The notes under the pieces were generated by a model, which saw nothing but the letters and a program-made list of their open reading frames with translations, ran no database searches and had not been told where the DNA came from. The position numbers were made by a program, and so were the translations under genes. Shown here in pieces: positions 14,601-29,073 of a DNA stretch of 29,073 nt (position 1 is the first letter of the stretch; each line of letters starts with the position of its first letter). The DNA is from Candidatus Heimdallarchaeota archaeon B3_Heim (GTDB lineage: Archaea > Asgardarchaeota > Heimdallarchaeia > Hodarchaeales > Hodarchaeaceae), in contig NJBF01000026.1 of the NCBI GenBank assembly GCA_003144275.1, positions 1 through 29,073 of the forward strand, given 5' to 3'.

Positions 14601-14951
14601 GTCGTTCACAAAATTCGAGATTCCAAGTATATTTTCTTCTTCATCAAATAGAATCCCGTAAACTCCTATTCTCTCCTGCGGATTATAATATCCTATATCC
14701 ACAACAAGTCTATTGTACAAGCCATTTCGATCATCATCAACAGGATAATCTTGCCAAGTAGTATTTCTCGGAAAAGTGGATAATTCCTCCTGTACCGCCA
14801 AATTGGGTGAATTTATATGATTATTTTCTGAGCTCCGAGAGATATCAGTCAATTTATCATTTTTTGAGACCGAATCTCCTCCCATTTGACCGAATAATGA
14901 TGTTGATAAAATTAGAAGAAGGAGAAATTTCTTAATAGGCACTGTTTCCAC
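11688..14951 (-). CDS. Large cell-surface protein with eight tandem ~123-aa beta-rich repeats and a C-terminal anchor
   Basis: Signal peptide; repeat consensus TGNYxDxGxDxDxxxxxDxLxIxIEVNVT...G..NITI...PYTTRxYxYxEFxxP; FPGL, TM and RRKR tail. Confidence 0.9.
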   Translation of the reverse strand: METVPIKKFLLLLILSTSLFGQMGGDSVSKNDKLTDISRSSENNHINSPNLAVQEELSTFPRNTTWQDYPVDDDRNGLYNRLVVDIGYYNPQERIGVYGILFDEEENILGISNFVNDNEETYVSLSFPGQPIHASGTDGPYFLRAGLYTPGWWGYIDISEINFSLMYKTQFQSYNHSQFERPRAMITGFSDYGNDTDDDTFYDEIVIGIQTEVTDYGYYEIAAYFEHSIDKHDTQYEISSHWSGYLQPGHNFLEIQLSASEFYKTKKSGYIRMNYVHLSLYGEPQHILTEAYNTSSVFYEDLASPSMELTGNYWDNGLDTDSNELYNQLEIIIEVNCTRAGYYTIILDLAPNSSQDSFLSYNQDLYKYWSVGIANISIIFDATPFYNMFSTTPFVTQDLTILDDQWEIQQLVPRPYTTREYSYTEFDYPQIFATGNYWDEGHDSNSNGLFDQLIITIEVNVTHTGSFGYSLELQPTTGTDQCWTQYFYEMSTFVTIGVQNVTIAIDTDRYYSIRRNTSFRIEYLEFTMDFGVNIRIELPYTTQEYQYTEFEKPAVYFTGRFWDFGVEGASEDIYELLALTCEVNSSQIGDYMFYIRLKALNSSIAWDQDQDINMALGKNINNVTFYFDMSRFYATDNHTDFFIETFEIRDNNWDTVDRAFSPYTTRSYQNSKFQPPAVYLTGNYYDYGEDLDGNGKIDDLILEVEINVTQPGVYSFDVGLEPLIPVWDSNRWVNFHQTLNLGIQNITLQMYVTLPYSLRLDTAFVIYHLTISDTEDWEEVFRQPSPLITRVYKYNEFDPPGIILTGNIWEIEEDTDSDDHLDLILYEIEVNVTQPSYYSYEYQLYSTDWYYNEGDYFGQQFDEGLANITITISTKLLYTYFDDLTITLGHFSLLNYNDNIVDRLTREYTTRVYSYGEFDPPGAYLKSNYYDQGVDIDQDGKYEILTIWVRVAVLQYGYYTLNLNMYAAPAWTYFRETVAGSWEEGEYFIDVNISASRLPLNFAGSEQMYVDVSYVAILEGSASGELISYQYGAFITNTYRVDQFDQIIDTSSVPPVFPGLNGQNVLFGVTLLIFISSFLLIRRKRFI

Positions 14952-15112: not shown

Positions 15113-16138
15113 ATGGAAATCACCAAAGGCTTGAAACAAGAAATAATAGAATGTCTTAGATTAGCACTTCCCTTTATAGGGGAAATTTCTGTCACCAACT
15201 TCCAGCGATTACTTGGAGCCGATACTGAAACATTTAGCTTCTCTTGTGTTAATAACGGTACAGAAATTCCATTAATACTCCGTCTATACAGAAAAGTCTC
15301 CGATCGTGCAGAAAATGAATATACCACATTACAAGCGCTTACTAATGCAGGTATATCAGTTCCTAAACCGTATATATGGAGGAAAACCTCTCAAACATTA
15401 TCACGTAGTTTTTTAATTATGGAAAAAATACCTGGGGAGTTGTTATCAGATTACATTTTGAAAACTGAATCAGACACCCAAAGAATGGAGGGTTTTCAGC
15501 TCTTTATTCAGGAAATGGTTAATGTTCACAAAATTGATTGGAAAATTAACTTCATTGATCAATCCTCTTTTAAAATGCCTGATATTGAGTCCAATCCATA
15601 TATATACATCGATAATCTCATTAAGTATCCCAAGAAGTTGATTAAGCTTCATAGCTTAAATGAATTGAGTCCTCTCATAGATTGGCTTGAGAAGAACAAA
15701 GTTAAGAGTGAAAATTTATCCCTACTGCATGGCGATTATCACATGAATAATATCATAATGACTCCACAAAAAAGATTAGTGGTAATTGATTGGGCCGATA
15801 TAAAAATAGGTGATTTTCGACATGATCTTGTTTTTGCAATTGTAGCCACGTCTTCTGCAGGGGTGGATGTCTCAGACACCTTCACTAACTTGTATCGAAC
15901 TAGTTCTAACAATAAGGTGAACCACATTGATTATTATATGATTTTATCCATTCTACATAATCTTTTACGGTGTTATAGTGCATTACTTGATCCCCAAATC
16001 ACAGGTGAAACTGAGACTACAAAACAAATGTTCTTTGTATCCTATATATCCTACACAAAATACCTGACACAGATTGTAAGAAGAATTACTGGCATCCATC
16101 TAACAACACTTGAGGAAGCACTTGCTACTGGAAAATGA
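15113..16138 (+). CDS. Aminoglycoside phosphotransferase (APH)/choline kinase family protein
   Basis: LILRLY, ENEY, VPKPY, FLIMEKIPG, Brenner motif LLHGDYHMNN and IDW. Confidence 0.9.
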   Translation: MEITKGLKQEIIECLRLALPFIGEISVTNFQRLLGADTETFSFSCVNNGTEIPLILRLYRKVSDRAENEYTTLQALTNAGISVPKPYIWRKTSQTLSRSFLIMEKIPGELLSDYILKTESDTQRMEGFQLFIQEMVNVHKIDWKINFIDQSSFKMPDIESNPYIYIDNLIKYPKKLIKLHSLNELSPLIDWLEKNKVKSENLSLLHGDYHMNNIIMTPQKRLVVIDWADIKIGDFRHDLVFAIVATSSAGVDVSDTFTNLYRTSSNNKVNHIDYYMILSILHNLLRCYSALLDPQITGETETTKQMFFVSYISYTKYLTQIVRRITGIHLTTLEEALATGK

Positions 16139-16153
16139 ACCATATTGATCTGA

Positions 16154-16182
16154 CACTCCCATCACTGTTTATTGAGGGAGTG
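16154..16182 (+). terminator. Stem-loop directly after the APH gene
   Basis: cactccc(a)tca / tga-gggagtg stem starting 16 nt after the stop; no long U tract, so the function is uncertain. Confidence 0.35.
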
Positions 16183-16249
16183 AAGAGATATTGGAGACTT
16201 GAGAGCCGCATTTTAGAAAGAATATCTAAACTACAGAATTATCAATGAA

Positions 16250-16852
16250 GTGACTGAAGGTGATCCGTCAGTCAAATATAATGAATTTTATCTGACACTT
16301 CACAATATGTTTGTCCTAATAGCTGGACTTCCAGGTACAGGGAAGACATTCCTGGCAAAAAACCTTCTTTCCTCGTTTTTTTCTGGATTTATCTATCTCA
16401 GTACTGATGAAGTGAGACGTCTTTACTTTGGTCTATCTGAACACCAATATATGGATTTTAATCAGAAAATCTATTCCCAGGATAAACGAGATATAGTCTA
16501 TAATGTCATAAATTTAATGGTAGACATTTTGCTAGCGCAAGGCTTTTCTGTTGTCGTGGAGGGGACTTTTTATCGTCAAGAGAAAAGGGAAAAGCTGCTT
16601 GATATTTGTAACCGTTTGAGTCATCAATACATAATTATTAAAACGATTTTTCCAGACGAATTGATGGAAGCTCGACTTCAGAATAGAGAGCGCTCCGATA
16701 ATAATGTCAGTGACGCTAGATATCAAATATATTTAGCATTGAAAGAACGTTTCGAGACAATTGTGCAACCACACCTTATTATTGATACTCAACAATCCAT
16801 AACATCTTGTATTGAGGAAGTGAAGAAATACTACGACGAAATTCCATCCTGA
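16250..16852 (+). CDS. P-loop kinase, AAA_33/COG0645 (gluconate kinase-like); likely start ATG 16307
   Basis: Walker A GLPGTGKT, STDEVR, VVVEGTFY, lid RLQNR...SDA. Confidence 0.88.
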   Translation: MTEGDPSVKYNEFYLTLHNMFVLIAGLPGTGKTFLAKNLLSSFFSGFIYLSTDEVRRLYFGLSEHQYMDFNQKIYSQDKRDIVYNVINLMVDILLAQGFSVVVEGTFYRQEKREKLLDICNRLSHQYIIIKTIFPDELMEARLQNRERSDNNVSDARYQIYLALKERFETIVQPHLIIDTQQSITSCIEEVKKYYDEIPS

Positions 16853-16853
16853 A

Positions 16854-17807
16854 ATGCTTTTGAATCCTTCCGCATATGATTACTCCGTGGAAAATGTAGA
16901 ACTACGAGAAACTCATATTTCTTGGGTCTTTCTAAGTGGTGATTTCGCGTACAAGGTGAAAAAACCAGTAAAATTTGGCGATATTCTAGATTTTTCAACC
17001 CTTGATTTGCGAAAGAAATTCTGTGAACGAGAAATTGCGTTAAATTCGAGATTTTCTCCTGATATTTACATAAATACATTTTATATTGATGATATGGGCC
17101 GAATCAATGGTTCAGGTACAATCATCGAGTATGGGGTGAAAATGAAGCGCTTACCTGAAGAATACCTCTTGGTCAACCTCCTAAAGGAAAAAAAGGTCAC
17201 CCTAGAATCCGTATCCAGGATTGCGGAAATTATTGCCACGTTTCATGCAAATACGACCAAAGTTCCCGAATATGGTGATTTAAAATTTATTGGTGAGAAA
17301 TGGGATGAGAATTTTCGTACAACGGCTACTTTCCGTTCTATTGACGAATCTTTCCGAGAAAAAGTTACATGTTTTTTACGAGGTAATCGGGGACTATTTC
17401 AAGAACGAATCAATGCCAATCGGATAACTGATAATCATGGTGATTTTCAATCCCGAAATATCTTCGTACTACCCAATCATGAGGTTCTGATATTTGATTG
17501 TATAGAATTCAGTTCCTTATTACGATATGGAGATGTAGCTGAGGATGTGGGCTTTCTTGCTATGGATTTAGATTTTTTAGATGCAAGAGAATTTTCTAGG
17601 CATTTTGTTGATATGTATGTCAAATTTAGTGGAGATGACTTAATCTTAGAAAACATTTCTTTTTTTAAATCATATCGTGCTTATGTTCGGGGTAAGGTGT
17701 ATGGTTTTCAGGCCTCTATGGAAGTTGATGACGGGAAGAAAGCGGAACTAATAGCGATGTCTGAGAAGTACTATACTCTCGCCTATCAATATTCAGAAAA
17801 CTGGTAG
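16854..17807 (+). CDS. APH-fold phosphotransferase, COG2187-like
   Basis: ETHISWVFL.G..AYKVKKPV.F..LDFSTL..R...C..E..LN.R, HGD, FDCIEF...RYGDVA.D..FL.MDL and YRAYVRGKV. Confidence 0.88.
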   Translation: MLLNPSAYDYSVENVELRETHISWVFLSGDFAYKVKKPVKFGDILDFSTLDLRKKFCEREIALNSRFSPDIYINTFYIDDMGRINGSGTIIEYGVKMKRLPEEYLLVNLLKEKKVTLESVSRIAEIIATFHANTTKVPEYGDLKFIGEKWDENFRTTATFRSIDESFREKVTCFLRGNRGLFQERINANRITDNHGDFQSRNIFVLPNHEVLIFDCIEFSSLLRYGDVAEDVGFLAMDLDFLDAREFSRHFVDMYVKFSGDDLILENISFFKSYRAYVRGKVYGFQASMEVDDGKKAELIAMSEKYYTLAYQYSENW

Positions 17808-18107
17808 ATGGTCTAACCAAGACAATGGCCCCTTCATCCTATCTCATTTTAGGTTAGATTGTGATTAAAATTTGAGTAAGAATTGAGATAGGGGGAACTT
17901 TTCCGTTCTTGTGAAATTATTAATGAATCTGTCTTGATATAGCGTATCGACAGGGTACTACTAAAAGGTTAGATGAATGGATTTTTAATATTAAGTTAAA
18001 CTTAGTTCTTATTCACATTCACACTAAACTTAATCACAATTGAGTGATATTCGGGTCTTTTTTTTGACTCTTATTTCTCACATATTGAATTATATATCGA
18101 TTAATAT

Positions 18108-18827
18108 TTGGTGATATTCCAAAGAAATATGTCATCCAAAAGGATAATGTTTGATATGGATTCTAAATTAGATAAATTATTTGAATCAAAACCTCAACCT
18201 GTCGTTTGGATTGAAGGTATAATTGGATGTGGTAAGACAACACTGACCAAGGCAATTTCTAGAAAGCTTAATTTTCGTGCTATTTATGAACCAGTAAATT
18301 TAGAATTATTAGAAATGTTTTACATGGATCAGGATCGCTGGGCATTTGCCATGCAAATTGATCTACTCCACCGCCGCTATGCATTACAAAAACTGGGTTC
18401 TTTTGAATCTATTACAGGGCAAGGGGTAGTAATTGATAGAGGGCTTCCTGGAGATCGTGTTTTTGCCAAGATGTTATATAAAGCGGGAAAAATGGATCGA
18501 ATCGAATGGGCTATTTACGAACGCGCATATTCGGTTATGACTAACTCTTTGATTCCTCCAAGTGTTATAATATTCATGGAAGTTCCTCCTGATATAGCAC
18601 GAGAACGAATAAGGAACAGAGATCGAAAAGCTGAACGTGGGGATTTAGTTCCACTTGCATATCTTCAGGAATTGGAAAATGGCTATTTAGAACTCTTGTC
18701 AGAAATTGAATCGGCATATCCCGCATGGAGTAGAGGAATGAAAGTGATAAAACTTCCATTTAATACCTCCGATGAATCCGAGGAGTCCATCAATAAAGTG
18801 ATCGGTATAATACAGGACTTAATATAA
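18108..18827 (+). CDS. Deoxynucleoside kinase family protein (likely start ATG 18129 or 18147)
   Basis: IEGIIGCGKTT, YEP, FAMQ, IDR...GDRVF, RIRNRDRKAE lid and YLQEL...Y. Confidence 0.9.
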   Translation: MVIFQRNMSSKRIMFDMDSKLDKLFESKPQPVVWIEGIIGCGKTTLTKAISRKLNFRAIYEPVNLELLEMFYMDQDRWAFAMQIDLLHRRYALQKLGSFESITGQGVVIDRGLPGDRVFAKMLYKAGKMDRIEWAIYERAYSVMTNSLIPPSVIIFMEVPPDIARERIRNRDRKAERGDLVPLAYLQELENGYLELLSEIESAYPAWSRGMKVIKLPFNTSDESEESINKVIGIIQDLI

Positions 18828-19364
18828 ATGGTCCATATTAATATTGAGTTTAAAGCAAGATGCGACAATCCCGAGAGAATTCGTAAGATTCTCTTATCCG
18901 AGAATCCAGTGTTCAAGGGGAAAGATCACCAAATAGATACGTACTTTATTGTAGAGTCTGGACGCTTGAAACTTCGAGAAGGGAATATCGAAAATGCATT
19001 AATCCATTATGAAAGACCGAATGTTGCGACTGCCAAACAATCAACCGTTCTTCTTCATCATCCTGAATCAGATAACACTTCTTCATTGAAAGAAATACTG
19101 ATAAAAACCCTAGGTATTTTAACTGTAGTTGATAAGGAACGTGAGATTTATTTTATTGATAATGTTAAATTTCACATTGATTACGTGAAGAATCTAGGTC
19201 ACTTCATAGAAGTGGAAGCAATCGATAACGATGGGTCAATTGGTACTCAAAAACTTCAGGAACAATGTGATCATTATCAAAAGTTGTTCCAGCTGTCTGC
19301 GGAAGATCTAATTGAAGTATCATATTCAGATTTGATTTCGTTATCTGATAACAAGGTAAGTTAG
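18828..19364 (+). CDS. CYTH-domain protein (class IV adenylate cyclase / triphosphate tunnel metalloenzyme)
   Basis: N-terminal ExExK-like NIEFKA, QIDTYF, RLKLRE, KEREIY, FHID.V..LG.FIEVEA. Confidence 0.92.
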   Translation: MVHINIEFKARCDNPERIRKILLSENPVFKGKDHQIDTYFIVESGRLKLREGNIENALIHYERPNVATAKQSTVLLHHPESDNTSSLKEILIKTLGILTVVDKEREIYFIDNVKFHIDYVKNLGHFIEVEAIDNDGSIGTQKLQEQCDHYQKLFQLSAEDLIEVSYSDLISLSDNKVS

Positions 19365-19369
19365 TTAAT

Positions 19370-19690
19370 ATGCCATCTCTGAAAGAACATCCTCCATTAA
19401 TTGCCTACCAGAAGTATGTAGCTGAATTAGAAAAGGAGAGGGAATTTAAAGACCAATCTGTGGTTGATAAATGCTTATTACTCGGGGAAGAAGTAGGAGA
19501 ATTGTTCAAAGCTGTCCGAAAGAAAGAAGGGTTGAATATTGATCTTAATTCAACCCCCTCCCAAATTTCATATGAATTAGTAGATATTTTCATATTCCTG
19601 TGTGCAATTGCTAATCGTTATGACATCAATTTAGAAGATGCTTTTCGAGAAAAAGAAGAAATAAATAAAAAGCGTCAATGGACCAAATAG
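19370..19690 (+). CDS. MazG-like all-alpha NTP pyrophosphohydrolase
   Basis: LGEEVGELFKAVRK, ELVDIFIFL..IAN...INLE.AF..K...N..R.W. Confidence 0.92.
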   Translation: MPSLKEHPPLIAYQKYVAELEKEREFKDQSVVDKCLLLGEEVGELFKAVRKKEGLNIDLNSTPSQISYELVDIFIFLCAIANRYDINLEDAFREKEEINKKRQWTK

Positions 19691-19893
19691 CGACGGGAAC
19701 GTCGTCAAATCATGCTTTCATACGAGAATTTCTTTATTTTTCATTTATATAGGATTTTCTCCGTTATGGGGGAAAACTACGTTATACAACATAGAAAAAT
19801 GTCGTTTATCGTTGGAAGGAAAGAAATTTCATAGGAAGAGTTGGAAACTTCAGTGGTGTTAGAAATAATTTATTTGGGAGGAGAGTCCTTGAT

Positions 19894-19919
19894 TCCTTGA
19901 GTGAATAAAAACTCAAGGA
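19894..19919. other. 9-8-9 perfect inverted repeat upstream of the integrase (candidate recombination site or SD-sequestering hairpin)
   Basis: tccttgagt-gaataaaa-actcaagga; the right arm overlaps aaggag, which ends 10 nt before ATG 19931. Confidence 0.6.
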
Positions 19920-19930
19920 GATAAGAAAAA

Positions 19931-21364
19931 ATGACCGTTCTGCGAGAATTAAAATCTATAATGGAAGATCCAAACCTAAAGAATAAAGAGAAGAAGAAAA
20001 GAGTGGACGAGCACCTTCTCGCTGAAGACTATATAAAGGATTGGGTAGACTGGAGGGCTGATGCATCGACCTCCAGAGATAAAGACGCCGTCAGGATGAA
20101 CTGCCTTAATATGCTTAGAAGATACCTAATGTTCCTAGTATCCAACGAGGATAATCTGGAACTAACTCTCACGGATCTGAAAGATGAGGCTTTAGAGGAT
20201 GGTATTGGTACTAAAGCTTGGAGGAGAATTCAGCAATACTACAACTGGTCTCTAGGACGTGAGATTACTAGTTATGAGAAAACTAAGAAGAAAACTAAGA
20301 CACTTAGATCAGCTTATCAGAGCGCTCATGTGAATATTCGTGGATTTTACTCTAAAGGAGTTCACGTTCATTTCTCTGCACGATATAAAGGGCCTAGAGA
20401 AGCAACAAAATCATCCTCGAATGTCGTAGAGACCGACAGAAAGCTTAAGCTTATTATTAGAGATAGCGAAGGTAACCGTGTCCTTGACCGCGAAAAAATT
20501 GAGAAATTCTTTGATCTCTTACCTAAACGTGAACAGGTTATCTTTGGTATCATTCTTACTGCAGGAGGGCATGATATTAAGGATGTCCTCCATATTCGAC
20601 TTGGGGATGTTAAAAACCAAGAGAGGTTCTTAGATAATGGGAAGTACTTCATCTTTAAAGGAAACAGGAATAAGGGTGGTGAACCCTTCATCTGTCTTGT
20701 CGCTCGGTGGGCTACTGAACTAATAATTCGATACAAAAATAATAATTGGATAGACGAAGATAGTGACAATGAATTCTTCTTTAAGCCTGCACTTTATGAC
20801 AAGAATAGCGATGGTAATGGGAGAGATAACACAGAAGACATTCCCGCTCTCTCTCCCAAGATAGTTTCCTACAACTTCCGCAAGGCCGCAATTAAGTCAG
20901 GACTAGTAAAAGAAGACAGAAGACGAAAGCAGGGTGAATATAATCAATTGAGACCAAAGAGATTCAGGCACGTCTTTGAGACGTTGATAGAGTACTATGA
21001 GGTGAAGTTCAATTGGCCTAGGAATGTCGCTTATTGCTTTATGGGACACAGCCAAGACGAACATCAAAGATATTCAGAAACCCAACTAGACGAACTACTA
21101 GACTTCTATAAACAAGTAGAGAAGTACTTAACCCTTGATGTCGTTGTCATACGGTCAGGTGAACCAGAAGTCTTGGCAAATATTGTCAGTGGCGAAGTTC
21201 AGACTCTTAGAGGTGAAAATCAAGAATTAAAGACTAGACTGGGTGAATTAGAGACGACTGTGGACGAATTGGTGAGTAACGTCCATAGGTATGAAGAACT
21301 GATTACGGGCACAATGCGTCCAGAAGGCCAACAATCTATACGTGAAGCATTTGAAGAGGAATGA
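19931..21364 (+). CDS. Tyrosine recombinase/integrase family protein with a C-terminal coiled coil
   Basis: Box I-like GGHDIKDVLHIRLGDV, RNK loop, box II KRFRHVFET, FMGHS and Tyr381. Confidence 0.85.
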   Translation: MTVLRELKSIMEDPNLKNKEKKKRVDEHLLAEDYIKDWVDWRADASTSRDKDAVRMNCLNMLRRYLMFLVSNEDNLELTLTDLKDEALEDGIGTKAWRRIQQYYNWSLGREITSYEKTKKKTKTLRSAYQSAHVNIRGFYSKGVHVHFSARYKGPREATKSSSNVVETDRKLKLIIRDSEGNRVLDREKIEKFFDLLPKREQVIFGIILTAGGHDIKDVLHIRLGDVKNQERFLDNGKYFIFKGNRNKGGEPFICLVARWATELIIRYKNNNWIDEDSDNEFFFKPALYDKNSDGNGRDNTEDIPALSPKIVSYNFRKAAIKSGLVKEDRRRKQGEYNQLRPKRFRHVFETLIEYYEVKFNWPRNVAYCFMGHSQDEHQRYSETQLDELLDFYKQVEKYLTLDVVVIRSGEPEVLANIVSGEVQTLRGENQELKTRLGELETTVDELVSNVHRYEELITGTMRPEGQQSIREAFEEE

Positions 21365-21527
21365 TTCTTCCACCATCTTCTCTCTTTTTTAGTTGTATCT
21401 TTATATGTATCTAAGGATGCCCCCGATTTATTAAAAATCTTTAATTGAATTCCTACTTTTCATATAGATTTAAAATTTTAGAAAAATATAAATTTGAATA
21501 CTCATTTCAATTTTCAGGGGACGACTA

Positions 21528-23063
21528 TTGATTACAAAAATATTCATAAAGAACTTTAAGGGATTTGGGGAACCAATACAAGAAATTCCTCTCAATAAGA
21601 TTACTCTAATATTTGGGGCAAATAGTGCAGGTAAAACATCAATCATTCAGCCTCTCCTTCTTCTTAAACAAACGCTTGAAGAAGCAAGTGACCCTCAAAC
21701 CGTTTTACTTCCTAATGGATATATGATCTCATTGGGAAATTATAGAGAATTTGTATTTAAACACGAAACAGATAGAGAAATATTCATTGGTTTTGAAGTA
21801 GATCATAAAGATTATTTAGGGTATCAATTTAATCTAAAAAAAAATATTTTATCTATCTCTGGTTTTAATGGAAGAATTAGTTCCAAAAAAGTAAGAAGAT
21901 TGACTAGAGGAAGAATTAAGAGAGAATATAATTTTTCTGGTAAACGATTAAAGAAAGGAAGCTATACAATAACATTAGATGATATTGAGAATGTTCTTGC
22001 ACAAGAAATCGATAGAACTTTACAGAATTTGTTAGAAGTGGGTTCATTTGAAGAGATCTTGTCTAAAAAGAAATATAGAAATTTAAGGACATATTTCATT
22101 AGAGAAATGGAAAAAAGCGACGAAAAAGATCCCACTGTCTTTATAAATAAGATGAATGATAGATTTCAAGACTTGAAACGACATGTTCAGGATTATGATA
22201 TATTAAAACACTTTACAAAAGAAGTAGTTGCTCTTGAAAACCCTTTACTATTAAAAATCAAAGATACTAGAAGATTTTATGATCTAAGGATAAAATCGGA
22301 CCTAGATAATGGTGAAAATTTCCTTGTAGATTTTATTAGGGAAGAAATTCGTTTTCCATATCTCTACCGTCTTTTAACATCTGTTCACGATATTTTTGCT
22401 AGAACATTACAATCATTAATTTTCATTGGTCCTTTAAGAGAGGAGCCTATTCGAATCTACACATACTCAGGAAATATACCCTCTACTGTTGGTATCGAGG
22501 GAGAATTTACAGCAGAAATGTTATATTATTCACAGACTATTAGAGACTCTATTAATAACAAATTTAAAGAATTAGATATAAAATACCAAATTAATGTTAC
22601 ACCTATTAGTGAACATGAAAATGATATATTTCGTATCAAACTAACTGATCAAATTATTAAAACAGACGTTACTATTACTGATGTTGGTTTTGGCCTAAGT
22701 CAAATCTTACCAATAATAGTTCAATCCTATGCCCTTGAACAAGGGACAATTTTCATTGAACAACCTGAAATACATATTCATCCTAAATTGCAAACCGAGC
22801 TAGCTCAATTGTTTTATGAAAGGATTACAGAAAATCAAAATATTCAATTCATAATTGAAACCCATAGTGAACACATTATATTAAGACTTCAACGATTAAT
22901 TCGAAAAGGATTGCTAAATCCTAGTGATATATCTATATTATATGTTACTAGAGAAAATAAAGGCATCGCATGTAAACAACTGAAATTAAACAACAAAGGT
23001 AATTTTATAGATCATTGGCCTGAAGGCTTTTTCGAAGAAGCGTTTATAGAAAGGTTCGGGTGA
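21528..23063 (+). CDS. ABC-type ATPase (AAA_15/AAA_21) with DUF3696-like C-terminus
   Basis: IKNFKGF, Walker A GANSAGKTS, signature DVGFGLSQILP, Walker B/D-loop IEQPEIHIHP, ETHSEH and terminal DHWPEGFF; TTG start. Confidence 0.92.
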   Translation: MITKIFIKNFKGFGEPIQEIPLNKITLIFGANSAGKTSIIQPLLLLKQTLEEASDPQTVLLPNGYMISLGNYREFVFKHETDREIFIGFEVDHKDYLGYQFNLKKNILSISGFNGRISSKKVRRLTRGRIKREYNFSGKRLKKGSYTITLDDIENVLAQEIDRTLQNLLEVGSFEEILSKKKYRNLRTYFIREMEKSDEKDPTVFINKMNDRFQDLKRHVQDYDILKHFTKEVVALENPLLLKIKDTRRFYDLRIKSDLDNGENFLVDFIREEIRFPYLYRLLTSVHDIFARTLQSLIFIGPLREEPIRIYTYSGNIPSTVGIEGEFTAEMLYYSQTIRDSINNKFKELDIKYQINVTPISEHENDIFRIKLTDQIIKTDVTITDVGFGLSQILPIIVQSYALEQGTIFIEQPEIHIHPKLQTELAQLFYERITENQNIQFIIETHSEHIILRLQRLIRKGLLNPSDISILYVTRENKGIACKQLKLNNKGNFIDHWPEGFFEEAFIERFG

Positions 23064-24073
23064 ATAAGGTGCAAATGATCTTTAATCTATCAATATGTGC
23101 CAGTTGTTTTTATAGTGACAATTCTTTGAAATCAACTTTACAATTCCTACTTAATCAGTTCAATAATTCGCTTCTTTTAAATTTGGGTACGCTAGTCAGT
23201 GAGCTTTTAAATCTATTTAGTTCTATTCTAGTACAAGATACAAAAAAGGATTTTCAAACATTATTATTAGAATACAATAAACGTAATAAAATCATTGAAT
23301 TTCAAATGAATGAAAATAATTCTATCTGTGAGATTAATCAGTTTCTGTCGGAACAGAAAGTTTGGATTTTGTTTTCAGAAGAGCAGAAGCCAGAAAGTAT
23401 TAAATCTAATACTTGTTCACAATGTTTAATAGCCTTGAAAGAGGGTATATTAAATATTGAACACCTAAATTTGAAGTATAACTTACCTCAATCTCAAGAA
23501 TTTCGTTGTTGCACCTCTGATACATGGGATTTATTAAGAACGCAAATCATTGAACCTTTATCGATTGGTAGTTCAAAACTCGAACTTTATGATATTTTTT
23601 TAGGAACTGATTTAGTTTATTTCTCAGAAAACCCAAAGAGTAATCCTTTAACTGATAGTGAGTGGATTTATACAATTCATCGAATTCTTAAAACATTTGA
23701 AGACGTCAGTTTATATAAGGATAAAAAATTTATAGTTCATACTCTTGTTAAATGTGACAAGATAGATAAAGTAGCACAATATGCCAGAGAGATCAAGAGA
23801 ACGTTTTTGAAAACGAATAATATTCAATTGACTTTCAAATTCTATAAATATCAAGGTGATGCTCCTAGACGTTTTACACACGATCGTTATCTTTTTTCAG
23901 AGAATATTGGGATTTCAAGCGGGATAGGATTTGATTTAATTATCCCAGATCGAGACACTATTCGTAGAGAGTCTCAATTTACCGTAATAGGAAATGAAAC
24001 AATTTTAAAGGTCATTAATCAGCATAGAGGGTTAACCAGAAGAGATCGAATTCTTGGAACACTTACAGTTTAA
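23060..24073 (+). CDS. Uncharacterised partner of the ATPase with a C-terminal HDR motif (PLD-nuclease-like, inferred)
   Basis: 4-nt GTGA overlap with the ATPase stop; C-terminal LELYDIFL...FTHDRYLFSENIGISSGIGFDLI. Confidence 0.7.
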   Translation: MNKVQMIFNLSICASCFYSDNSLKSTLQFLLNQFNNSLLLNLGTLVSELLNLFSSILVQDTKKDFQTLLLEYNKRNKIIEFQMNENNSICEINQFLSEQKVWILFSEEQKPESIKSNTCSQCLIALKEGILNIEHLNLKYNLPQSQEFRCCTSDTWDLLRTQIIEPLSIGSSKLELYDIFLGTDLVYFSENPKSNPLTDSEWIYTIHRILKTFEDVSLYKDKKFIVHTLVKCDKIDKVAQYAREIKRTFLKTNNIQLTFKFYKYQGDAPRRFTHDRYLFSENIGISSGIGFDLIIPDRDTIRRESQFTVIGNETILKVINQHRGLTRRDRILGTLTV

Positions 24074-24100: not shown

Positions 24101-24331
24101 TCACATGCATAATTCTAATGTTCGTCCATTTACGAATAACAATTCCTTCCATTTTTCTTTGATCTTTTTACGTTCATCCTCAAATTGATCGGATAACCGT
24201 TTTAAAAACAATAAACCAAAGATATAATGCTTATAATACGCAGAATCAATACTCTCGCGTAGTATGTCAGCTGATTGTCATAAAAACTTTTCTAATTTGT
24301 CTAATGTCAATTTATCTTTATATTTTTCCTT
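24101..24331 (-). pseudogene. hsdM: 5' fragment of a type I restriction-modification methyltransferase (HsdM N-terminal domain)
   Basis: Hand translation: KEKYKDKLTLDKLEKFL*QSADILRESIDSAYYKHYIFGLLFLKRLSDQFEDERKKIKEKW. Matches the HsdM_N consensus LExxLWxAADILRGxxDxxxYKxYIxxLLFLKRLSD, with TGA at 24278-24280 in place of the conserved Trp. Confidence 0.88.
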
Positions 24332-24342
24332 TTAATTCGAAT

Positions 24343-24618
24343 TTATATAGAACAACAAATCTTTTGTGGATTTCGTTTCGGTTTCCTTGGTATCTTCTTT
24401 TTAACAACATATTTTAGTGCAGGTTGCTTTGGTTGGCAGTTTTCCAAATGATAGCGATAGCGTGTTTTTGTTCTAAAGATTCGAAAACAATCATGACACA
24501 CAATCAATTTGGAGTGGAATTCTGTTATGTGAGCGACAAATTCCTCACGACGAGTGAATCGAATTGGACACCCTTTGGGGCAGTTCACAACAAATGGCAA
24601 TAATGGTGAAAAAGTCAT
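24343..24618 (-). CDS. Double zinc-finger protein (C2H2 plus C2HC) with a basic tail
   Basis: CPKGC...HITEFH and CHDC...HLENC. Confidence 0.8.
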   Translation of the reverse strand: MTFSPLLPFVVNCPKGCPIRFTRREEFVAHITEFHSKLIVCHDCFRIFRTKTRYRYHLENCQPKQPALKYVVKKKIPRKPKRNPQKICCSI

Positions 24619-24942
24619 CTAATCCCATCGGGAGGCGATATAAAGCACACAAATTCCTGTATCAGCGGCATTAACGATCCACAGTTTGTCAAATTTTAGA
24701 TTTAATATCTGCGTTAAATCGCCTGCTACTATAGGAATTGGATTGTTAGTTTTTTCATTAAGAACTATGTCGAAATTTGAATCAGATCGAAGAACTTTCA
24801 GCTCGTTGTACGTATGAACGACTTTTTCAAGATCGAATTCCTCGTTGTTCCTAGACTTGGTTAAATCCAGCGTAATGATCCTATAATGAAGATTTAATCG
24901 CTCTTTTACAGGATTTGCATTTTTTAATGTTTCGCTCATCAT
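24619..24942 (-). CDS. Hypothetical beta-strand-rich protein
   Basis: Alternating hydrophobic strands; SD-like gagg upstream; stop abuts the next ATG. Confidence 0.75.
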   Translation of the reverse strand: MMSETLKNANPVKERLNLHYRIITLDLTKSRNNEEFDLEKVVHTYNELKVLRSDSNFDIVLNEKTNNPIPIVAGDLTQILNLKFDKLWIVNAADTGICVLYIASRWD

Positions 24943-25032
24943 AAAACCTCATTTAAGGTTGGGAGTGGACGGCAGTGAAGAAAACCGTCCAAACCCTGAT
25001 GGATATCGGTGTGATGTTATGAACTATAAGCA

Positions 25033-25389
25033 TTAACTCCATCGGTATTGCTCGGGGTATATCCTACGCAATCGACGTTGGCCTAAACGATTTCGCTGAC
25101 CTGTTAAAGTAGCAGTTTGTTCAACAGGCATAAATTTATCTACTATACCCTGAATTCGGGCTTGAACCAACACTTTTCGTGCATCTATTGACTCTCTAGT
25201 TGGAGGAAATACAGGCATTAGAATTGTCGTTGGAGAGGTTTGACCAACTACTCGACGTCTTTTGAAGAATTGAGCAGCTACATCACCATCGACAGCTACG
25301 TCAGATTCCTCTTCTTCTTCAACTGGTAATTCACCAGTCTGTCTTCTTAGTCGAGTTTTATTTCTTAATTGTAATAATCGACTTGCCAT
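25033..25389 (-). CDS. Hypothetical protein with Arg-rich termini and an acidic tract
   Basis: SD aaggag upstream; RNKTRLRR, EEEEE, FKRRR and RNRLGQRRLRR segments. Confidence 0.75.
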   Translation of the reverse strand: MASRLLQLRNKTRLRRQTGELPVEEEEESDVAVDGDVAAQFFKRRRVVGQTSPTTILMPVFPPTRESIDARKVLVQARIQGIVDKFMPVEQTATLTGQRNRLGQRRLRRIYPEQYRWS

Positions 25390-25424
25390 TATTCCATAAA
25401 CTCCTTTTAATTTGTAATATTCTT

Positions 25425-25577
25425 CTATCCTAATGATCTAAATCTCCTAATTCTAAATCTTTGTCTAAACAATCTCCTACTTCGTATTCGTTGGCCAATC
25501 TGTGGATTGAATCGAGCGGGATGTTGTCGAGGTTCAACAAAATTTGATCCTTTTCTAATACGATCTGTAAATCTCAT
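25425..25577 (-). CDS. 50-aa arginine-rich protamine-like protein (not in ORF track)
   Basis: Hand translation: MRFTDRIRKGSNFVEPRQHPARFNPQIGQRIRSRRLFRQRFRIRRFRSLG*, 15 Arg of 50. Fills the gap between two co-oriented genes; ATG lies 8 nt after the upstream stop. Confidence 0.7.
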   Translation of the reverse strand: MRFTDRIRKGSNFVEPRQHPARFNPQIGQRIRSRRLFRQRFRIRRFRSLG

Positions 25578-25585
25578 TTTAATCA

Positions 25586-25894
25586 CTAAGCTAATATACG
25601 GAAAGCACCACGAACGATACAGTATTCTCTCTCGTCATATTCACCTTCTAACACAATAAGATGATTCATCGCTGGCCCAGGCTCCACTATAATAGTCTCC
25701 TTGATTCCCGATATCAGCGTATCAACCCCACCTTCAATTCTGATAGCTTTTTTTGTCCTCCATCTCCAAATAGGAATTCTTCCAGCACCGAATCCTTTTA
25801 TAAGATAATTTGGTGTTCCTATTCTATGTTTTACATGGATTTGTTTAATTAAGATATCAGGAGGTGAAATAATACTTTCTACCATTACGTTCAC
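25586..25894 (-). CDS. Hypothetical protein of the element
   Basis: Co-oriented ORF in the compact operon; no recognisable motif. Confidence 0.65.
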   Translation of the reverse strand: MNVMVESIISPPDILIKQIHVKHRIGTPNYLIKGFGAGRIPIWRWRTKKAIRIEGGVDTLISGIKETIIVEPGPAMNHLIVLEGEYDEREYCIVRGAFRILA

Positions 25895-25930
25895 TCTTTA
25901 AAACTAAGATAGATTCAAACTACATTAAGC

Positions 25931-26146
25931 TTACTCATGGCCTGCAAGTAATTTCTTGACGATAATGTCCAGTTGACGCTTGATGATGTCCATATCTTGA
26001 TGTATGAACGATTCACGACCGCTTTGTTCAAGATAAAAAACGATAGCTTCTCTAACATATTCACTACGTCTAATGTTCCATTTCTCACAGACTTTATCAA
26101 CCTGTTGTAGAACCTTGTCAGGAAAATAAACGGTAATAGGTTTCAA
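25931..26146 (-). CDS. Ribbon-helix-helix (CopG/Arc-like) transcriptional regulator
   Basis: MKPITVYFPDKVLQQVDKVCEKWNIRRSEYVREAI: alternating beta ribbon, helix A, and the SEYVREAI helix B; TTG start. Confidence 0.9.
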   Translation of the reverse strand: MKPITVYFPDKVLQQVDKVCEKWNIRRSEYVREAIVFYLEQSGRESFIHQDMDIIKRQLDIIVKKLLAGHE

Positions 26147-26288
26147 CTAGCGTCTATCCTAGGATCAGTGTCCACCATAGTTTGATACTCTAACATCTGT
26201 AAATGATTATTATGATTAATTAATGATTCTTTTAGACTCTTTAGGAGGCTGTCATTGGTGTCCACACTTACTAATTTGCTCATAGAAA

Positions 26289-26768
26289 TCACTCTGATTG
26301 TAAAGACATTCCTTTTGCCATTCTTTTTGCCTTAGCAAGTTCTTTTGCAGCTATTTTTTCTTCTACTGTGGGAGGAGCTGGTGGTTCAAAAAATCTGCGT
26401 CGTGGTGGAGGTTGAGGTGTGTCCACTTCTTGACCAGAATTTTGTTGGACAGGAGCTGTTTGAACTTTGAAACTAGACACACGTTGCCTCAAGTTTCTCA
26501 CTAATTGTCCGCTAAGAACAGGATTATTCGGTTCGGGTGCATTAGGTGGTACCATTTGTTGGACAGTGGGACTCAATGGAGGATTCGCGGGCTGATTAAC
26601 CGATAGGCTTGGTTGATTTTCTTGACTTTCAGCGACTACTACTAGTATCTGCGATGGAGACTGTTTGAGATTCTGTACTTTTTTCTGTATCTTAATCATT
26701 TTCTTGGTCAGCTTGTCACTTAAATAATCAAATATTCCGTAATCATCATCTTCTGACATGTTTATCAA
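26289..26768 (-). CDS. Pro/Gln-rich, largely disordered hypothetical protein (start possibly ATG 26759)
   Basis: Composition; 4-nt overlap with the upstream gene stop. Confidence 0.75.
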   Translation of the reverse strand: MINMSEDDDYGIFDYLSDKLTKKMIKIQKKVQNLKQSPSQILVVVAESQENQPSLSVNQPANPPLSPTVQQMVPPNAPEPNNPVLSGQLVRNLRQRVSSFKVQTAPVQQNSGQEVDTPQPPPRRRFFEPPAPPTVEEKIAAKELAKAKRMAKGMSLQSE

Positions 26769-27688
26769 CTCTCCTTAATTATTTGCGGGGAATCTCTTTC
26801 TAATATGGCTAAAATTCCTTGATCACCAGTGCTTGTCACAGATTCTCGTAATTGTTGACGTTGTTCTGCCGTTTGTTTCCTAGCTGCCTTCTTATCTCTA
26901 AAATCTTCAACGATTAAGTCCACGAAGGTATTTACTCCTTTAACCATTGTTCTATCCATTTCTGTCTTAAAATCTGATACATCTTTAGTTATTTCAGTCT
27001 TAAGTTTCTGCATTTCTAGTTTGAAATCCTGTTGAATCTTGATTAATTCAATATCAGTCTTATGAGATGATCTAATTTGAGCTAATTCTTTCTCATGATT
27101 CCTCTTTAACTCATCTTCCATGCGTTTGTGAAGATTTTCTATTTCTCTATCTTTTGCTTTGAGTATATCTTCCCGTTGTCGCTCTTCTTCAAAGAATGCT
27201 CGTTGACTTTCTTGTTCTCGCTCAGGAACACCTAGTCTATCACTAATATTCTTTTGAGCCAATCTTTCTTTCAGGATTGCAGTTTCTCTTTTCAATTCAC
27301 TAATTTCTTGCTCTTCATCTGGTAAAAATTCGGTCTCGATTGGTTTGAGTCGTACCACTGTTGAACCGCTTACCGCTTTGGCTTTTTTCTTAGTCTTAGG
27401 AGCAATTTTAAGCTCATCAGCATAATGCTCACGAAATTCCTGATAATCATGGATGGTATCGTGGCGACTTTTCCCTAACACATGGCCTGATAAAGATTTT
27501 AGTGTATCGAAGCTAGCGTCACACCATGAGCATCCCCACTCTTTTTCAATGGAAGTAGTGGGGTCTGTATCTGGAGGTACTTGGTCTATACCATTTAATT
27601 CACTAGGAGCATGGATGGACGAAATTTTGCTGTCTGTCTGTTCCATCGCTTCCTCCTCATTATTAATTTCTTTTGTCATTAGAATCAT
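26765..27688 (-). CDS. C2H2 zinc-finger plus long coiled-coil protein
   Basis: CSWCDASFDTLKSLSGHVLGKSRH, followed by ~130 aa of E/K/R-rich heptads. Confidence 0.85.
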   Translation of the reverse strand: MILMTKEINNEEEAMEQTDSKISSIHAPSELNGIDQVPPDTDPTTSIEKEWGCSWCDASFDTLKSLSGHVLGKSRHDTIHDYQEFREHYADELKIAPKTKKKAKAVSGSTVVRLKPIETEFLPDEEQEISELKRETAILKERLAQKNISDRLGVPEREQESQRAFFEEERQREDILKAKDREIENLHKRMEDELKRNHEKELAQIRSSHKTDIELIKIQQDFKLEMQKLKTEITKDVSDFKTEMDRTMVKGVNTFVDLIVEDFRDKKAARKQTAEQRQQLRESVTSTGDQGILAILERDSPQIIKES

Positions 27689-28004
27689 CTATTCTCTTAA
27701 TCTTATGTAAGTTCAAGGACTAAATTGTAATATTTCTGGTTGCTTCTCCAGCAAAGCCACACTAAAACAAGTCTTATTCTTAGGTTCTTAGAAATTAATA
27801 GAAGATTTATGGGTTTCTCTTTTCTAAGTGGACACATCAAGATATAATGGACATATACTAGATGGTGTCCAAACATTCAAATAGTATAAGTGTCCTTACC
27901 AAGAAGTAGTAACCAATGAAATGATTATCACAGATAATAGCTATAAGAGAGTGCCGGAACCAGGAAGTCTGTCCAATAAATAGTGACGGACAGCATTCTT
28001 ATAG

Positions 28005-28259
28005 CTACCTGGTTTGATAATCATCTCCTTCGTCTTCTAGTTCACTTAGAATAATACCCCAAAGAGTAGATTCTTTTATCCCATAAAATTCAGCTAGTTC
28101 TTCCGCCGTTTTATGTTCCCTGAAGAATTGATCACGAATACCGATAATTTTAGGCCTAAAGTTTTCGGTAATTGTCGAAGTATTCCCATTATTGGATAGT
28201 GGACAGATATAGTGGACACATACTTCTTTACGCCGCAGGCCCCATGGCCGAACACCCCC
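28005..28259 (-). CDS. Putative small HTH protein with no ATG/GTG/TTG in frame (frameshifted after ATG 28189, or non-canonical start)
   Basis: Stop-to-stop open frame encodes ...NTSTITENFRPKIIGIRDQFFREHKTAEELAEFYGIKESTLWGIILSELEDEGDDYQTR*; KTAEELAEFYGIKESTL is an HTH pattern. Confidence 0.55.
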   Translation of the reverse strand, partial: GGVRPWGLRRKEVCVHYICPLSNNGNTSTITENFRPKIIGIRDQFFREHKTAEELAEFYGIKESTLWGIILSELEDEGDDYQTR

Positions 28260-28330
28260 CTATATAATGCTCGGAAGATAGATATTTTTAGTATTAATTA
28301 TAGGGCAATGCGACTATGGGGCCTTGCGGC
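28232..28330. other. ~100-bp imperfect inverted repeat with GC-rich arms and an AT-rich centre (candidate origin or structured element)
   Basis: gccgca-ggccccat (28232-28245) pairs with atggggccttgcggc (28316-28330); inner ccctata / tataggg pair. Confidence 0.7.
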
Positions 28331-28338
28331 CTGAATTA

Positions 28339-29073
28339 CTAAGAAATAGAATCATCAGCTAATTGGACATATAAATAGTAGGTCTTCCTTGGTTTGTTCT
28401 TTAAGTCGCGGAATGATTCAATTTCTCCCTTCGGATTCAATCTACGCCAAACTTTAAACAAAGGGGTAGTTAGGTATTGTTTGTTTTTATATACTGGTTC
28501 GACATCTCTATCATCACAAATCTGTAAATACACCTCCCAAACGTCATCTATCCACACCTTGTCACTTTTACTTGGAATTAGCTGTTTAGCTAGTTCATCT
28601 ATTGGAGTACTCGATCTAGTCTCAAGTAAATCACGTTTTACTTCATAATCATTATAATCATCAATAAATCCCCTTCGTCTCAATAAACGACTCAATCCCA
28701 GCAAAAAGAGGTTTAATTGGCCGCTCCTTTCTTTTGGGGTGTTAAACTCTGCTAAAATCTTATGTTGAGGTCTATCTTTTGGGGTACCTCTAAATCTATG
28801 ATGAAACGTGCTAACAATAATTCGATCCATCAAAGCTTCATCAAGTTCCATAGGAGGTATCTGGTTGAGATCACAAAATAGTTTGGCATTGTTAATAAAC
28901 TTAAATTGAGCCTTGTATATAGGTCTACCAGTCACAGGATTCCCTCCTGTTAAAGCTTTAAAAATTCCAGAAGGTAAGAGTTTATTTGATCTCCTTTCTC
29001 CCGCAAAATTAGCATTTTTACCATAGAGAGCAGCTATGTGTTTCGCAGAGTCTTGACCCGCAATTTGATCTAA
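28339..29073 (-). CDS. D5/P4-like superfamily 3 primase-helicase, C-terminal part (5' truncated by the window edge)
   Basis: Frame is open to the edge: ...ALYGKNANFAGE...FKALTGGNPVTGRPIYKAQFKFINNAKLFCDLNQIP...ALMDRIIVSTF (Walker B, motif B', motif C, Arg finger), then a winged-helix-like tail. Confidence 0.92.
   Translation of the reverse strand, partial: LDQIAGQDSAKHIAALYGKNANFAGERRSNKLLPSGIFKALTGGNPVTGRPIYKAQFKFINNAKLFCDLNQIPPMELDEALMDRIIVSTFHHRFRGTPKDRPQHKILAEFNTPKERSGQLNLFLLGLSRLLRRRGFIDDYNDYEVKRDLLETRSSTPIDELAKQLIPSKSDKVWIDDVWEVYLQICDDRDVEPVYKNKQYLTTPLFKVWRRLNPKGEIESFRDLKNKPRKTYYLYVQLADDSIS

Follow-up and report, generated by a model that had tools for sequence, protein, structure and literature searches.

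We analysed a stretch of 29,073 nucleotides (hereafter the window) from Candidatus Heimdallarchaeota archaeon B3_Heim (contig NJBF01000026.1), a Hodarchaeales-type Asgard archaeon, in which an earlier note, made from the sequence alone, had singled out two adjoining genes at 21528-24073 as a candidate antiviral system. We read this pair, an ATP-binding cassette (ABC) ATPase gene followed by the gene of a partner protein, as a sensor-less two-component relative of Menshen (NsnB-NsnC) and HEC-03, carried as cargo beside the integrase of an element, and give this reading a probability of about 65%. Equivalently, the pair is best read as a HEC-03-type two-gene system whose effector bears a PB-PLD1/MIT_C-like phospholipase D (PLD) domain. 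The novelty lies in what is combined here: NsnA is missing, the effector is of PLD type, the partner family is restricted to Asgard archaea, and an integrative element carries the pair. The evidence consists of the structure of the genes, the family of the ATPase, the PLD fold of the partner with its conserved HDR motif and Asp, the strict linkage of the two genes, the absence of NsnA and the restriction-modification genes found nearby. By analogy with the published systems, we infer that the two products would form a complex which, once triggered, would act on a substrate and produce a defence phenotype.

Both open reading frames (ORFs) lie on the + strand, where the earlier note had placed them. 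The first (21528-23063) encodes 511 amino acids from a TTG start, which is backed by homologues whose own TTG or GTG start falls at this N-terminal strand, and the second can be read from a GTG at 23060 to 24073 (337 amino acids). The GTGA overlap of the two genes, described earlier as evidence of translational coupling, is present in the sequence, but as the real arrangement we rejected it in favour of a start at ATG 23075, because the sole database copy of the partner begins at M6, which is this ATG (332 amino acids), because all homologues in the family alignment start at the residue aligned with M6, and because an AAGGTG lies upstream of it at 23067-23072. The likelier arrangement is therefore an 11-nucleotide gap after the ATPase stop codon and no overlap. 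Close homologous pairs have gaps of 6-16 nucleotides, and more distant ones overlap by 4 or 8 nucleotides or stand at most 47 nucleotides apart; tight linkage of ATPase and partner is a trait of the family, whichever start is real. The two genes probably form one operon, with these parts:

21365..21527, + strand: AT-rich intergenic region (GC 0.264), the presumed promoter region of the pair
21528..23063, + strand: NsnB-class ABC ATPase gene, 511 amino acids, TTG start (Pfam, PADLOC, conserved start)
23060..24073, + strand: partner (putative effector) ORF; longest frame from GTG 23060, 337 amino acids; probable start ATG 23075, 332 amino acids (ORF list, homologue starts)

The pair has a G+C content (GC) of 0.298; the window as a whole has 0.363 and the flanks 0.368-0.375. 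Of the 47 kb examined, the 2.5-kb stretch with the least G+C begins at 21801, within the pair (minimum 0.292; mean 0.356, standard deviation 0.023). The AT-richness noted earlier is thus real, down to a hand count of 13/60 G+C at 21781-21840, which is exact. The pair also runs opposite to the element genes at 24343-29073, as had been said, these being on the - strand; the integrase-like gene is on the + strand, like the pair.

The product of the first gene had been taken for a DUF3696-type ABC ATPase, and profile searches place it in the NsnB class of these. It matches Pfam AAA_15 (9e-26), AAA_21 (1e-18) and, at the C-terminus, DUF3696 (PF12476, 3.3e-08), and in PADLOC it scores best with Menshen's NsnB (2.8e-62), followed by the HEC-03 ATPase (6.3e-57; labelled HEC-03B in PADLOC and HEC-03A in the preprint) and PDC-M55A (8.3e-52), with far weaker matches to the AriA, GajA, PtuA and AbiL models. 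The motifs below were located in an alignment (A4) of the window copy with five homologues:

21615..21641, + strand: Walker A, G30-ANSAGKT-S38, invariant in A4
22428..22448, + strand: GPLREEP segment with Arg304 at the Q-loop Gln position; G301, P302, L303, R304, E306 and P307 invariant in A4
22686..22703, + strand: GFGLSQ, with G-x-G replacing the SGG signature motif; G387, F388 and G389 invariant in A4
22752..22769, + strand: Walker B variant FIEQPE, with E411-Q412 replacing the D-E dyad, invariant in A4
22857..22874, + strand: H-loop/sensor ETHSEH with H446, invariant in A4
22914..23051, + strand: C-terminal DUF3696 tail, residues 463-508 (Pfam PF12476, 3.3e-08)

Other AAA_15/OLD-family ATPases generally read D-E-P-E at Walker B. 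The window ATPase has E-Q at this place, where Menshen NsnB has E-N; the other two peculiarities given for NsnB by Li et al. (NAR 2025, PMC12065111), an Arg at the Q-loop Gln and a G-x-G signature, are common to both proteins. A non-acidic residue at the position of the catalytic Glu suggests slow hydrolysis and a nucleotide-state switch, and the whole degenerate set (E-Q, Arg, G-x-G) beside an intact Walker A points to a slow, switch-like ATPase. No close solved structure of the protein was found, the best matches being weak ones to an OLD-family nuclease and PtuA. The window pair is the most divergent member of its family (41-49% identity to the rest for the ATPase, 32-35% for the partner), and its ATPase lacks some 65 residues of a helical insert that the five other genus members in the alignment carry (A4 columns ~200-330). 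The same genome encodes a second, more distant AAA_15-type ATPase (C4:89069-89437, - strand, in a 435-amino-acid frame), which the profile matches in its C-terminal part at E 5e-18.

The partner matches nothing in Pfam, PADLOC, NCBIfam or PHROGs, and for all 8 members of its family the Pfam and PADLOC searches were also empty at E<=10. The HNH, TOPRIM and PD-(D/E)xK families were included in the Pfam, PADLOC and NCBIfam searches, which agrees with the earlier observation that the protein has none of these motifs. Its relatives number about 15 proteins, all from Asgard metagenome-assembled genomes labelled Heimdall-, Hod- or 'Promethearchaeota', with 32-37% identity to the window copy. To find these relatives, an exhaustive phmmer search covered 1.84 billion representatives, 5.8 billion proteins were searched twice with profiles at E<=10, and 185,579 species genomes were scanned with a pattern; none of these searches found a sequence bridge from the family to bacterial NsnC. 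The family profile gave only chance-level matches to PDB sequences.

Structure was more informative. In a model made with AlphaFold 2 (AF2) on the family alignment (A2), residues ~155-337 are usable, with block means of ~60-86 for pLDDT (the predicted local distance difference test) and dips below 50 at 182-185 and 288-305. By model comparison this C-terminal domain has the PLD fold, with MITD1 as the closest structural match, followed by Streptomyces PLD (8.9), Moritella PLD (8.7) and phosphatidylserine synthase (7.9); PLD-family nucleases come lower (SauUSI 7.8, NgoAVII 7.1, Zucchini 6.9, NucT 6.8, Nuc 6.6, BfiI 6.5). Foldseek agrees, both for the PDB (PLD 1e-4, PLD3, MITD1) and for clusters of the AlphaFold database (MITD1-C/PLD entries), and an Atlas search with the partner has MIT_C and PLDc_2 rows among its matches. 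The relation to MIT_C is structural only, as the Pfam MIT_C hidden Markov model (PF16565) matches no family member at E<=10. The guess of the earlier note that the C-terminus is an HDR variant of the PLD-nuclease fold is upheld by the AF2 model, by Foldseek and by the invariance of HDR. Besides F-x-H274-D275-R276-Y277, the residues invariant in A2 are G284, G288, G290, D292 and R302-R303-E304-x-Q306. Set against the HKD motif, HxK(x)4D(x)6G(G/S)xN, the family reads H274-x-R276-(x)4-[E/N/D]-(x)6-G288 in one copy per protein, so that it retains the His, has Arg for the Lys and varies at the Asp. The features of the partner are:

23075..23500, + strand: N-terminal domain, about residues 6-147; a hydrophobic strand, then S-x-C-A-S-C-F, without an acidic residue
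23501..24070, + strand: C-terminal PLD-fold domain of MIT_C/PB-PLD1 type, about residues 148-337
23591..23593, + strand: Asp178, which immediately follows the PLD domain's first strand; kept in 7/7 full-length family members and in a distant homologue, the G015 partner (VDRYLG)
23879..23887, + strand: H274-D275-R276 (HDR), a variant of HKD that reads HxR(x)4[E/N/D](x)6G; invariant in A2 and H-E-R in the G015 partner

For the N-terminal domain, NsnC offers a comparison, since its own N-terminus is an inactive PIN-like (inPIN) domain that two DUF3696 tails clamp in AlphaFold 3 models (PMC12065111). Whichever Asgard ATPase of this class is taken, its partner opens with a hydrophobic strand and then D/S-P (in several cases h-h-h-D-P), and in the family of the window partner a Ser and no acidic residue follow the first strand. 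Such a start would suit the first strand of an inactive PIN, but is no proof of one. No PIN family match was obtained with PADLOC or Pfam in any of the 8 family members, the fold search with the low-confidence N-terminal model returned no matches, and a feature search and hhalign were uninformative. A predicted 1:1 complex of ATPase and partner scored 0.02, which counts neither way, the expected assembly being an ATPase dimer or tetramer that clamps the partner.

To follow the pair through the phylum we used a sample of 400 genomes from 85 genera. The partner family is present in 7 of the 22 genomes of the window's genus, and no credible match was found outside the genus among the 400, where two others (E ~6e-4) span 50-77 profile positions and contain stop codons. 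An ATPase homologue (41-64% identity) stands directly upstream of the partner in all six other genus genomes and on one metagenome contig, and in the six genomes the pair lies in chromosomal contexts without the window's integrase. On CP070760.1, from a Heimdallarchaeota genome (G064, L003 6001-7984), the gene calls split the ATPase upstream of the partner homologue into three short genes (226, 174 and 178 amino acids), only the C-terminal 178 amino acids of which match the ATPase; the sequence copy that was read has N's there, and the ATPase may be broken with the partner intact.

The ATPase profile finds more distant relatives in 34 of the 400 genomes (19 of 85 genera). We fetched eight such loci; in each, an ORF of 155-339 amino acids follows the ATPase in tight linkage, and no NsnA adjoins it. 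These partners vary. At L058 (6711-7178) the partner is a 155-amino-acid PIN protein, HEC-03-like, and those at L060 (6936-7793) and L062 (6841-7659) have a C-terminal DUF2103-like domain (PADLOC CARF_DUF2103, 1e-6 and 1.6e-4), which is another published type of NsnC effector (PMC12065111). The G015 partner is a distant full-length homologue of the window partner; where the window family has its conserved Asp and HDR, it reads V-D-R-Y-L-G and F-P-H-E-R. A range of PIN, DUF2103-like and PLD-like partners suggests effector swapping as in Menshen.

The sensor gene of Menshen is missing, in agreement with the earlier note, which had seen no DUF262 gene here. DUF262 (PF03235) is absent both from the window's neighbours, as searched with Pfam, and from the whole genome, which is 94% complete; control genomes gave matches in the same search. 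Among five distant-locus genomes tested, four carry DUF262 genes, all of them elsewhere in the genome, and one has none. A 477-amino-acid gene upstream of the pair was considered as a divergent NsnA and rejected, as both features and structure make it tyrosine-recombinase-like. Restriction-modification genes are found near several of the related pairs: type IIG genes lie three genes from the pair in two close loci, and DNA methylase, ResIII or Eco57I genes stand beside three of the distant ones.

The surroundings of the pair and of its relatives add a defence context, for which we count a remnant of hsdM, the restriction-modification genes near related pairs, the low GC and the adjoining integrase. 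The neighbouring features in the window are:

19931..21364, + strand: tyrosine-recombinase/integrase-like gene, 477 amino acids, at the edge of the element (Atlas features, predicted structure)
24140..24331, - strand: truncated, TGA-interrupted remnant of the N-terminal part of hsdM, abutting the 3' end of the pair (Pfam HsdM_N 4.6e-15, TGA read through)
28339..29073, - strand: 3' part of a primase/helicase gene whose frame continues beyond the window end (DUF5906 1.4e-4; PHROG DNA primase 1.2e-15)

The integrase-like protein has no Pfam, PHROG or PDB sequence match; its Atlas features relate it to Phage_integrase clusters at 0.98, and against integrase clusters its predicted structure has a template modelling (TM) score that is 0.62 by query and reaches 0.84 by target. 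Together with the primase/helicase gene it supports in part the proposal of the earlier note that the pair is cargo of an integrated element, while the boundaries that would go with this were not seen: there is no tRNA in the window and there are no att repeats, a single 15-mer being the only exact repeat of at least 13 nucleotides between 17500-20000 and 24000-47000. It is thus only gene content that supports an integrated element. The hsdM remnant retains about 48 HsdM N-terminal residues and starts 12 nucleotides after the stop codon of a zf-C2H2 gene; from this stump it follows that the site of the pair formerly held a type I restriction-modification system.

Just upstream of the integrase are six nucleotide-metabolism-like genes (15113-19690, + strand), namely an APH-type kinase, an AAA_33/zeta-toxin-like kinase, a second weak APH, a deoxynucleoside kinase, a CYTH protein and a MazG-like pyrophosphohydrolase. 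They could be a nucleotide-modifying or nucleotide-depleting cluster, of the host or of the element. Further upstream, 11688-14951 on the - strand is an ORF of 1087 amino acids with no Pfam match at E<=0.01. Among public sequencing runs no RNA run is listed for the pair, and one DNA run contains a small share of its words.

How the pair stands to named systems had been left to a check with existing models, and the outcome is divided: by PADLOC models the ATPase matches NsnB, HEC-03 and PDC-M55, and the partner matches none. Like Menshen, the pair has an ATPase with NsnB as its top model and a DUF3696 tail, the ATPase gene followed by the effector gene, and effectors that are polymorphic across related loci (PLD-like, DUF2103-like and PIN). 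Its partner also resembles PB-PLD1, the HDR-type, MIT_C-like PLD effector domain of Menshen NsnC, which has a D/E after a strand (Li et al., NAR 2025, PMC12065111); the likeness, in MIT_C-like PLD fold, HDR and conserved Asp, is to the published description. In canonical Menshen, however, NsnA (ParB-DUF262 plus ParBDB) is encoded upstream of NsnB, and the published survey, which took NsnA as its seed, reported bacterial lineages (PMC12065111), whereas the host here is an Asgard archaeon whose genome has no NsnA near the pair or elsewhere, so that membership in Menshen fails on NsnA.

HEC-03 consists of an NsnB-like ABC ATPase and a PIN-domain (VapC-like) protein, both genes being needed for defence (Payne et al., bioRxiv 10.1101/2024.01.29.577857). 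The window pair has the same two-gene layout, a closely related ATPase and no separate sensor gene. Unlike the HEC-03 partner, whose model it does not match, the window partner is about twice as long, adds a PLD-fold domain not described for HEC-03, has no PIN family match and lacks on its first strand the acidic residue of active PINs. The earlier idea of an undescribed system therefore does not hold as it stood, since the HDR-type PLD domain is already known in NsnC (PMC12065111) and the two-gene HEC-03 has been validated (bioRxiv 10.1101/2024.01.29.577857).

For PDC-M55, a candidate system in PADLOC, the ATPase matches PDC-M55A, but no PDC-M55 partner model matches the window partner, so that of the two PADLOC models, A and B, just A has a match here. 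Septu (PtuAB), PARIS (AriAB) and Gabija (GajAB) also join an OLD/AAA_15-type ABC ATPase to a nuclease held or regulated by the ATPase oligomer; they differ in having HNH or Toprim effectors and no DUF3696 tail, and their ATPase models match the window much more weakly. The PLD-type nuclease-NTPase systems Azaca and Mokosh have helicase-type NTPases. With regard to the MITD1 C-terminal domain and Pfam MIT_C, which is also found at the C-terminus of BrxL, the window partner differs in lacking an MIT domain and in being coupled to an ATPase. In the literature we found no description of an NsnA-less pair of ATPase and PLD protein, nor any on PDC-M55, and none of Menshen-like systems in Asgard archaea beyond census papers. 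PADLOC v2, which has no model for the partner family, would not call the pair.

A two-gene system would plausibly be sufficient, because in HEC-03 the ATPase and one partner suffice and both genes are needed. In the mechanism that we propose, the lineage-specific N-terminal domain of the partner would presumably dock on the ATPase, whose oligomer would keep the effector inactive, in analogy to Menshen models, Septu, PARIS and Gabija; the clamping of the NsnC N-terminal domain by two DUF3696 tails in the Menshen models (PMC12065111) is for the window pair an analogy only. Because no NsnA is present, an infection cue would be sensed by the ATPase itself, the nucleotide state would shift, and the effector would come free or change its arrangement. 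PLD nucleases with a single HKD motif, Nuc and BfiI among them, work as dimers, in which two motifs build one active site. As such enzymes need two motifs per active site, activation of the single-motif effector would probably proceed by its dimerisation, which would complete a two-His active site. Once active, the effector would cut phosphodiester bonds, nucleic acid being the likeliest substrate, and so stop the virus or the infected cell.

Several observations weigh against this reading. Residues 1-154 of the partner have pLDDT <50 in the AF2 model, which leaves an NsnC-like two-domain architecture half supported. None of the partner models for NsnC, HEC-03 or PDC-M55 in PADLOC is linked to this protein by sequence, and the restriction-modification neighbours are a plain count without a background rate. 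As for the active site, the residue at +7 from the His, where HKD has its Asp, is E, N or D among family members. MITD1, the closest structural match of the partner, is known for binding membranes and is not known to be an enzyme, so catalysis by the partner is not assured. It is accordingly conceivable, if rather unlikely, that the PLD-fold domain is non-catalytic or acts on lipid, either binding membranes like the C-domain of MITD1 or hydrolysing phospholipid; the HDR motif is invariant in the family and the Asp is kept in its full-length members, and nucleases as well as PLDs are among the structural matches. A much bolder version, for which we see very little chance, would have an Asgard lineage of sensor-less ATPase-effector immune modules whose HDR-type PLD domain is of one type with the C-terminal domain of eukaryotic MITD1; this ESCRT-associated domain would then descend from an immune effector of archaea, the module perhaps acting on membranes instead of nucleic acids.

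The place of the pair, beside a mobile-element integrase and of foreign composition, would also suit an addiction or stabilisation module of the element, toxin-antitoxin-like, in which the ATPase holds a PLD-fold toxin in check. AAA_21 is annotated in Pfam as AbiEii/type IV toxin-antitoxin-like, and HEC-03 is toxic when induced (bioRxiv 10.1101/2024.01.29.577857). Yet six other genomes of the genus carry the pair in the chromosome without the integrase, and the class of ATPase is known from validated anti-phage systems. We consider such a module improbable as an alternative to defence, although the difference is partly a matter of emphasis, abortive infection and addiction not being mutually exclusive. 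That the pair is a decayed three-gene Menshen, no longer working since it lost nsnA, is most unlikely. NsnB is indeed the best PADLOC match and canonical Menshen has NsnA, and the adjacent hsdM remnant shows decay at the same spot, but both frames are intact, the DUF262-less two-gene layout recurs in 7 genus genomes and 8 distant Asgard loci with catalytic motifs kept, the genome has no DUF262 anywhere, and HEC-03 is a working two-gene form. It is this conservation of the two-gene form across the phylum that makes decay unlikely.

Read as a sensor-less relative of Menshen and HEC-03, the pair would bring Asgard archaea into this class, in which an ABC ATPase controls the effector. Within the phylum the core of ATPase and effector would travel with no DUF262 sensor, and its effectors (PLD-like, PIN and DUF2103-like) would be swappable, which implies that sensing may lie with the ATPase itself or with the N-terminal domain of the effector. 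Since Pfam and PADLOC v2 models miss the partner family, such pairs are under-counted in archaeal defence censuses. The hsdM stump beside the pair points to a turnover of defence genes where an archaeal integrative element holds its cargo. Finally, the two genes, within 2.5 kb, offer a compact test case of whether HDR-type MIT_C-like PLD domains are enzymes, and of how a single-motif PLD effector would be kept off and then switched on.

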